A stretch of 64,000 nucleotides of DNA, taken from assembly GCA_964441315.1 (NCBI GenBank), contig CAYTUN010000001.1, forward strand, positions 12,807 through 76,806, given 5' to 3'. How positions within the stretch are numbered: the stretch's first letter is position 1; every line of letters starts with the position of its first letter. The notes under the pieces are model-generated. The model saw only the letters and a program-made list of their open reading frames with translations, was not told where the DNA came from and made no database searches. A program made the position numbers and the translations under genes. Source of the DNA: an uncultured Gammaproteobacteria bacterium (GTDB taxonomy: Bacteria; Pseudomonadota; Gammaproteobacteria; CAYTUN01). This document shows positions 16,503-16,806 of the stretch, piece by piece.

Positions 16503-16806
16503 TCCCCTCATCCGCCCTATCGGGCACCTTCTCCCACAAGGGGAGAAGGGCAACGCTAAGAACATCTGCCAATAAATAAGAACATCTGCTAATAATTAAG
16601 AACATCTGCCAATAATAAGAACATCTGCTAATAATAAGAACATCTACCAACAATAAGAACATCTGCCAATAAAATAAATGCTGCCGCGTGAAATAAGCTT
16701 TGCTATGGAAAATTATTATTTCATCGATTATTTCATCAGCAGACGTACCAATCAGTTGGCCTTCTCCCCTTGTGGGAGAAGGTGCCCGATAGGGCGGATG
16801 AGGGGT
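16503..16806. mobile_element. MITE family A copy 1 (about 47-bp TIRs acccctcatccgccctatcgggcaccttctcccacaaggggagaagg) carrying an internal 19-20-bp tandem array
   Basis: Left arm 16503-16549, right arm 16760-16806 (perfect reverse complement); the interior shares the acatctgccaat…aaataaa core with the other copies. Confidence 0.8.
16558..16672. repeat. tandem repeat, 6 copies of unit aagaacatctgc(c/t)aataat(a/t) (VNTR-like) inside MITE A copy 1
   Basis: Read directly from sequence 16558-16672. Confidence 0.85.

Follow-up and report, generated by a model that had tools for sequence, protein, structure and literature searches.

Five copies of a palindromic-arm repeat, probably a REP-doublet family, at gene ends in an uncultured gammaproteobacterium

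Repeat copies and gene neighbourhood

The window (the whole stretch of DNA analysed, 64 kb) holds five copies of a small repeat, termed here family A, in the spacers between the genes listed in Table 1. Every copy is intergenic and lies at gene ends, as the initial annotation had stated. The junctions that hold copies are convergent in four of five cases and divergent in none, against a window background of 11 convergent junctions in 49 (binomial p ~0.01). The elements are non-coding. Two ORFs that run through the arms (Table 1), already suspected of being spurious, are present and matched nothing in Pfam or NCBIfam; none of the ORFs crossing the elements had a Pfam match at E≤10, and a protein-coding reading of the arms was rejected as no protein family was matched. 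The repeat family accounts for several oversized intergenic regions and for some spurious ORFs in this genome. No good match to the IHF consensus (WATCAANNNNTTR) was seen by eye in the interior.

Table 1. Coordinates of the repeat copies, their parts and neighbouring features in the window
Feature	Position	Strand	Size	Description	Left gene	Right gene	Gene orientation
Copy 1	16504-16805		302 bp	two arms and 210-bp interior with tandem array	lnt	DUF2339 membrane protein	convergent
Copy 1, left arm	16504..16549	+		CCCCTCATCCG, GCCC-TATC-GGGC, CA, CCTTCTCCC-ACAAG-GGGAGAAGG			
Copy 1, right arm	16760..16805	-		reverse complement identical to left arm			
Copy 1, tandem array	16557-16672	+		period 19			
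Array units	starts 16558, 16578, 16598, 16617, 16636, 16655		19-20 bp	consensus TAAGAACATCTGCCAATAA			
Copy 2	27032-27212		181 bp	left-arm mini-hairpin is the GGCCC-GTT-GGGCC variant	DJ-1/PfpI	SDR	convergent
Copy 2, additional inverted repeat	27014-27031, 27213-27230		18 nt per side				
Copy 3	33192-33383		192 bp	interior oriented as in copy 2; family B repeat 30 bp away	sdaA	pssA	convergent
Copy 3, interior duplication	33267-33290		2 x 12 bp	duplication of AAACTTCAATGC			
Copy 4	50409-50590		182 bp	interior runs opposite to that of copies 2 and 3	nth	DUF1841	tandem
Copy 5	59775-59954		180 bp	interior oriented as in copy 4	DUF155	280-aa protein without assignment	convergent
lnt terminator	16297-16330						
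Spurious ORF	16342..16662	-					
Spurious ORF	59738..59950	+					
Family B	28112-28279, 32994-33161, 50243-50410		~168 nt	inverted ends TAGGGCCTGTTTACAATTGC			
Family B, partial	56131-56195, 54406-54430						
Family C	29914-30043, 40516-40617, 49391-49502			palindromic doublets TCAGGAGATTGCCGCG...CTCGCAATGACAA			
Family D	1-47, ~16455-16495, 50825-50871			GCGCAATAACACCTAAAACYTATCCGTTTTGAGTATAGC			
Further hairpin	47011-47039			CTCGCCGCAAGCGGCGGGGTATTAAA			
Spacer with repeat row	50243-50871			at least four repeat families	nth	DUF1841	
Giant ORF	3567-8579	-	1670 aa				
Giant ORF	8673-13694	-	1673 aa				
244-aa ORF	39732-40466		244 aa	no Pfam match			

The host was placed no more closely than as a deep gammaproteobacterium. 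The best non-self Lnt homologue (81% identical) came from the Logan assembly of a relative and the next was 52% identical; the closest named homologue, from Coxiella sp. DG_40, was 46% identical. Coxiella burnetii was ruled out as the organism, the Lnt of Coxiella sp. DG_40 being just 46% identical. The relative from the Logan assembly shares about 83-85% nucleotide identity with the window. A presence/absence comparison showed that copy 5 is missing in the relative at the syntenic junction, where 74 bp separate the two genes against 252 bp in the window. The best-fitting gap was 175-183 bp and runs from arm to arm, at a site too diverged for the junction to be placed exactly. Downstream of lnt, the contig of the relative is not syntenic with the window at copy 1. 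A 244-aa ORF of the window (Table 1) is also missing from the syntenic contig of the relative (L121:6009-6335); a family C repeat adjoins it.

Arms, interiors and tandem array

The 23-mer CCTTCTCCCACAAGGGGAGAAGG, which covers hairpin B of the arm (described below), was searched for with up to three mismatches (≤3) and gave ten matches in the 64-kb window, five per strand, and none in 100 shuffles. The tag CCCCTCATCCG was matched at the same ten sites, against 0.25 matches expected. All arm matches pair into five doublets, with no solo arm in the window; the five elements with terminal inverted repeats of about 47 bp that had been proposed are thus recovered in full, and the family is a real, well-defined repeat family. 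Sizes range from 180 to 302 bp, four of the five copies being of ~180-190 bp. The two arms of each element show 94-98% complementarity over 53-59 nt. The inverted repeat extends ~11 nt beyond the limits given earlier (TATTTTGATCA), and copy 2 has extra paired sequence on each side (Table 1). In copy 1, a variant of the motif ACATCTGCC adjoins both arms.

The ten arms of the window have a mean identity of 93%, with the tag unchanged in ten of ten and hairpin B in nine of ten. The interiors are AT-rich, of ~90 bp outside copy 1, and only 67-76% identical to each other. This difference indicates that the arms are constrained and that the interiors drift. As the initial annotation had noted, the interiors are related in both orientations: those of copies 2 and 3 run one way and those of copies 4 and 5 the other.

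Tandem Repeats Finder reported a single array in the window, that of copy 1 (6.0 copies, 88% matches; Table 1). The explanation first offered for the greater length of copy 1, tandem amplification of one interior motif, agrees with the six head-to-tail units found, and the minisatellite (a head-to-tail array of 19-20-bp units, as assembled) is real. The array motif is single-copy in copies 2 and 3. Copy 3 has a short duplication of its own (Table 1), so copy 1 is not alone in showing interior slippage. The extra 115 bp of copy 1 would have arisen by replication slippage of the 19-bp interior motif. The array is one possible typing locus.

The arm as a structural module

The arm is a module of 46-47 nt, composed of a tag, a sequence-variable mini-hairpin, the dinucleotide CA and an invariant hairpin B. 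The tag, (A)CCCCTCATCCG, is single-stranded and 11-12 nt long. Hairpin B, CCTTCTCCC-RCAAG-GGGAGAAGG, has a 9-bp stem. A lone arm was predicted to fold into two local hairpins, and a whole element into a structure of -126.1 kcal/mol (z = -17.7). Three mini-hairpin variants occur in the window (GCCC-TATC-GGGC, GCCC-TTAC-GGGC and GGCCC-GTT-GGGCC) and their changes are compensated. Such compensated changes, together with changes in the loop of hairpin B, make up nearly all differences between the window arms; the one remaining difference, in the right arm of copy 5, is a stem substitution.

Rfam, used at gathering thresholds, gave no match anywhere in the window. Permissive Rfam scans of one element and of one Mesorhizobium doublet returned generic long-hairpin matches to miRNA precursors only, far below threshold. 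Literature searches by sequence (tag, hairpin B and combinations of them) returned only unrelated primers and constructs.

The arm in other bacteria

A scan of one genome per species placed the 23-mer at at least 120 genome loci, and 77 further metagenome loci with the module were found, about a third of them AT-rich. At least 120 loci with the module were found in IMG/VR viral contigs (L204-L283 among them). As many IMG/VR entries are prophage calls on isolate genomes, these matches were read cautiously, and they may reflect host flanks, not phage carriage. The arm was present in 66 PLSDB records, mostly from Rhizobium and unannotated. The GenBank phage collection gave two weak matches, and E. 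coli genomes gave none.

Among the matches listed, the hosts were mostly Alphaproteobacteria (Bradyrhizobium, Mesorhizobium, Caulobacter, Brevundimonas, Phenylobacterium, Devosia, Labrys, Bosea, Rhodoblastus and Methylocystis), joined by gammaproteobacterial MAGs (one labelled Legionellales) and, as the non-proteobacterial hosts, by the Planctomycetes and Chloroflexi (Fimbriiglobus, Roseiflexus and a Dehalococcoidia MAG). An identical four-part layout was seen in every foreign flank among these matches. The window arms are 96-98% identical to those of Devosia, Bosea and Caulobacterales over 47-50 nt. A non-coding module of 46 nt is found near-unchanged from Legionellales-like Gammaproteobacteria to Rhizobiales, Caulobacterales, Planctomycetes and Chloroflexi. 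The arm family, which occurs across many bacteria, is of old origin or has spread horizontally. The window interiors matched no other sequence searched, the metagenome loci sharing the arms alone. The outer 11-nt extension of the inverted repeat is lineage-specific and lies outside the conserved module.

Foreign doublets were arranged with the tags inward in 36 cases and with the tags outward, as in the window, in 4 (among the matches listed). Single arms also occur; one of them (L093) follows immediately on the sdaA stop codon. Some foreign doublets join arms with differing middle hairpins, among them a Mesorhizobium doublet with a predicted four-way-junction fold. The genes flanked by the arms are housekeeping genes. 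The stretches between facing arms were considered as a place for a transposase and this was rejected, since they hold purT (L089), dnaN (L008) or a mip-like gene with sdaA (L093). Apart from common transporters, no recurrent protein was found within 1.8 kb (≤1.8 kb) of the arms at the 197 foreign loci. Among the matches listed, the GC-rich foreign doublets lay at convergent, tandem and divergent junctions in 20, 29 and 5 cases, against a background of 134, 316 and 119, the classes being those of a crude GC3-based gene caller applied to GC-rich loci; convergent junctions were enriched and divergent ones depleted.

At the arms, the sequence GTAG was seen only in lineage-specific flanks (L003, L133 and L157). 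In a gammaproteobacterial MAG (L157:880-1280), a second, unrelated perfect palindrome is nested in the interior of a family A-type doublet. That doublet and the one at L133:750-965 are both flanked by GCGAGTAGCG-GATC-CGCTACTCGC. This sequence is a GTAG hairpin that served as the target, or else an arm extension specific to the lineage.

Pairing in the foreign arms

Among the matches listed, 178 foreign arms carried 135 different middle hairpins, all of 9 to 42 nt except one. Their mean predicted fold was -8.2 kcal/mol, against -2.8 for shuffles, and the loops were mostly TTCG, TGCG or TCCG. Covariation was tested on 27 arms of equal length (405 cells). Pairing was kept in 96.8% of the cells, against 85% for shuffles and 47-60% when the partners were slid. 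Two-sided changes were found in 47 cells where 13 were expected, a value reached by 0 of 500 shuffles; one-sided changes were found in no cell and G-U pairs in 1 of 405. The lack of one-sided cells means that G-U intermediates are essentially absent. Pairing kept on both strands speaks for a palindrome at the DNA level, or for both strands being used, and not for an RNA motif of one strand.

A sister variant of the arm is present in Alphaproteobacteria (L008, L020, L022, L066 and others), with a CACCCG-type tag (ACCCCTCACCCG) and the hairpin CCCTCTCCC-GCAAG-GGGAGAGGG. Its change in the stem of hairpin B is compensated and is coupled with the change of the tag.

Nature of the repeat

The five loci are best explained as copies of a non-autonomous REP-doublet palindromic repeat (REPIN- or BIME-like), a reading to which we give a probability of roughly 0.58. 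As in REP, BIME and REPIN elements (PMC3733652; PMC3116915), the unit is a short palindrome that bears a conserved unpaired tag, occurs singly or as inverted dimers, is extragenic and mostly at 3' ends, and shows compensatory stem substitutions; some of those families also span phyla. REP families common to distant phyla have been described, with head-to-head and tail-to-tail dimers spaced 20-100 bp apart (PMC3733652), and the CGTC superfamily has no associated transposase (PMC3733652). The tagged palindromic unit, its occurrence alone and as dimers in both orientations, the compensatory stems, the preference for 3' ends, the lack of a target duplication common to all copies and the lack of a parent insertion sequence among the window ORFs and foreign loci scanned together support this reading, which fits the features of the window better than an insertion-sequence-derived MITE. 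The differences lie in the build. The tag of the arm is the 11-12-mer (A)CCCCTCATCCG, unlike that of the GTAG and CGTC REPs; the arm has ~46 nt with one variable and one invariant hairpin, whereas a classical REP has 20-40 nt; and, unlike REP dimers, the doublets here enclose a family-specific AT-rich interior of ~90 bp. The tags-outward doublets of the window are also the minority arrangement elsewhere (among the matches listed). Without a GTAG or CGTC tag, and with two hairpins, the arm is placed with REPs in general kind and with neither of the two named superfamilies.

In the course of events proposed for the REP doublets, two arms would in this lineage enclose an AT-rich interior of ~90 bp, and whole doublets would be copied to new intergenic sites. 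The drift of the interiors to 67-76% identity indicates that the copies are old, and the intact arms that constraint acts on the arms only. Strict Watson-Crick pairing on both strands suggests that the arm works in a folded DNA form, as a hairpin or cruciform. The folded arm would be recognised by a protein supplied in trans, possibly a RAYT-like HUH enzyme or another, and the copies would persist at the 3' ends of genes, where they may do least harm. If transcribed, each copy could form a hairpin of ~-126 kcal/mol, and this might block exonucleases or read-through. Neither a RAYT nor another candidate enzyme turned up in the 64 kb of genome and the short foreign stretches. The repeats themselves are unexceptional DNA of the selfish or structural sort. 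The arm gives a handle on a question of the REP literature, namely what copies or preserves REP-type repeats that lack a RAYT, and the module is common enough for a cross-genome co-occurrence screen to name a partner protein. A more far-reaching proposal, which we make tentatively and hold to be rather doubtful, is that the arm represents a third, so far undescribed superfamily of palindromic repeats beside the GTAG and CGTC REPs, multi-phylum and with no linked transposase, and maintained in folded form, as DNA, by some protein or copying mechanism that is widely conserved.

The label of MITE in the initial annotation holds in part. The elements are small, non-coding, present in several copies and bounded by long, near-perfect terminal inverted repeats; no parent transposase was found among the ORFs and loci scanned, the inverted repeat is not private to the family, and no direct repeat or target-site duplication is common to all five copies. 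The label is acceptable just as a loose description. As a classical MITE, the family would derive from an insertion sequence by internal deletion, with ~57-bp inverted repeats and a DDE transposase encoded elsewhere in the genome, its short TA or GATC duplication having been blurred by age. Such an origin would account for the size, copy number and lack of coding capacity, and for a copy 5 that is present in the window and absent in the relative. TA precedes six of the ten extended ends. Copy 2 and the L133 and L157 doublets each have GATC immediately outside A-CCCC...GGGG-T on either side; the TA at the extended ends and the GATC around copy 2 would allow for a cut-and-paste origin with a short duplication. 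Against such an origin, the arm is also found single and, far more often, reversed with the supposed termini inward (among the matches listed), some doublets combine arms with different middle hairpins, and the outer 11 nt of the inverted repeat are peculiar to the lineage. No transposase was found between or beside the arms at the 197 foreign loci, nor among 20 flanking or unassigned ORFs of the window compared with protein-family libraries. We consider a classical MITE unlikely.

It is more improbable still that the arms are chiefly cis-elements of the host, maintained by host selection and spread only secondarily, for instance by recombination. Candidate roles would be the stabilisation of RNA 3' ends, barriers between convergent transcripts, or sites for conserved nucleoid or repair proteins. 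The essentially invariant tag and hairpin B beside decaying interiors, the conservation of the arm across bacterial classes, the preference for convergent and 3' junctions with few divergent ones, and the very stable predicted hairpin are all in line with such roles. An intrinsic terminator was rejected for copy 1, as the terminator scan finds no such site inside it; lnt has a terminator of its own (Table 1), and the hairpin is not followed by a U-tract, the T-runs being 5' and the A-runs 3'. The related species does without copy 5, a role at the RNA level alone fits poorly with covariation that is strictly Watson-Crick and free of G-U, and host function alone leaves the near-identity of arms in unrelated phyla unexplained. 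Assembly artefact or chance similarity has a negligible probability. The contig is of the metagenome type, short reads can be misjoined at repeats, and the unit count of an array can be in error; yet the arm matches number ten of ten against none in shuffles, the flanks of every copy are unique and its interior has diverged, and the module recurs across hundreds of separate records. In a Logan assembly made independently from the same organism (L124), the upstream gene is again joined to copy 2, with the sequence ending inside the left arm. This shows that the family is not an assembly artefact, and for the family as a whole this explanation is effectively refuted.

Comparison with other small repeats

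The resemblance to the QMITE elements of Coxiella that had been suggested is an analogy only, since no feature tested links the elements to QMITE1, and QMITE2 was compared by description. Like QMITEs, the elements are small, non-coding, strongly folding repeats of a gammaproteobacterial genome rich in small repeats (PMC5896051). QMITE1 has 300-400 bp and DUF1658 ORFs (PMC5896051), whereas four of the five copies here have ~180-190 bp and no DUF1658 match was obtained. QMITE2 has 150-190 bp and carries a GTAG REP core targeted by IS1111, with inverted repeats of 17-29 bp and unique direct repeats of 7-11 bp (PMC5896051); its copies occupy intergenic stretches and 3' UTRs, and Alphaproteobacteria hold partial relatives of it (PMC5896051). 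By description, the present family differs from it in its inverted repeats of 46-57 bp, in having no direct repeats and in the lack of a GTAG tag in the arm.

In Neisseria, the Correia (NEMIS) elements are similar in their inverted repeats, intergenic abundance, long hairpin when transcribed and length variants (PMC2229807). They are 100-155 bp long, have inverted repeats of 24-26 bp and show a clear TA duplication, and their long form contains an IHF site (PMC2229807). They are confined to Neisseria, whereas the window arms span bacterial classes and show no consistent TA duplication. The CIR elements of Caulobacter and Brucella are likewise intergenic repeats, of ~110 bp, that are highly conserved between alphaproteobacterial species (PMC2229807). 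Their fold into arms joined by a linker, with no classical terminal inverted repeat, is a further likeness. CIR elements are defined by a conserved GANTC in the terminal loop (PMC2229807); by description, the Caulobacter, Brevundimonas and Phenylobacterium doublets differ in lacking a consistent GANTC. The arm module and the CIR elements could conceivably be identical.

Other repeats and ORFs in the window

Three further repeat families were noted (Table 1). Family B forms the hairpin TTGCTTTTT-GCAGTAG-AAAGAGCAA, with GTAG within the loop, and directly adjoins copies 3 and 4, whose family A interiors run opposite ways. The core of family C, TGTC-ATTGCGAG...GCAAT, resembles the CGTC/TGTC-tagged REP superfamily (PMC3733652). 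Family D has a copy directly to the left of copy 1 (~16455-16495), and a Logan contig of the same organism (L125) begins within another. In the nth-DUF1841 spacer the repeats stand in a row: a family B copy is followed by copy 4 of family A, by the hairpin CTCGCCGCAAGCGGCGGGGTATTAAA twice over, and by a family D unit.

Two adjacent giant ORFs (Table 1) lie in a stretch with a GC content of 0.27-0.33, against ~0.40 elsewhere. They may encode paralogous surface or effector-like proteins, or form a horizontally acquired block.
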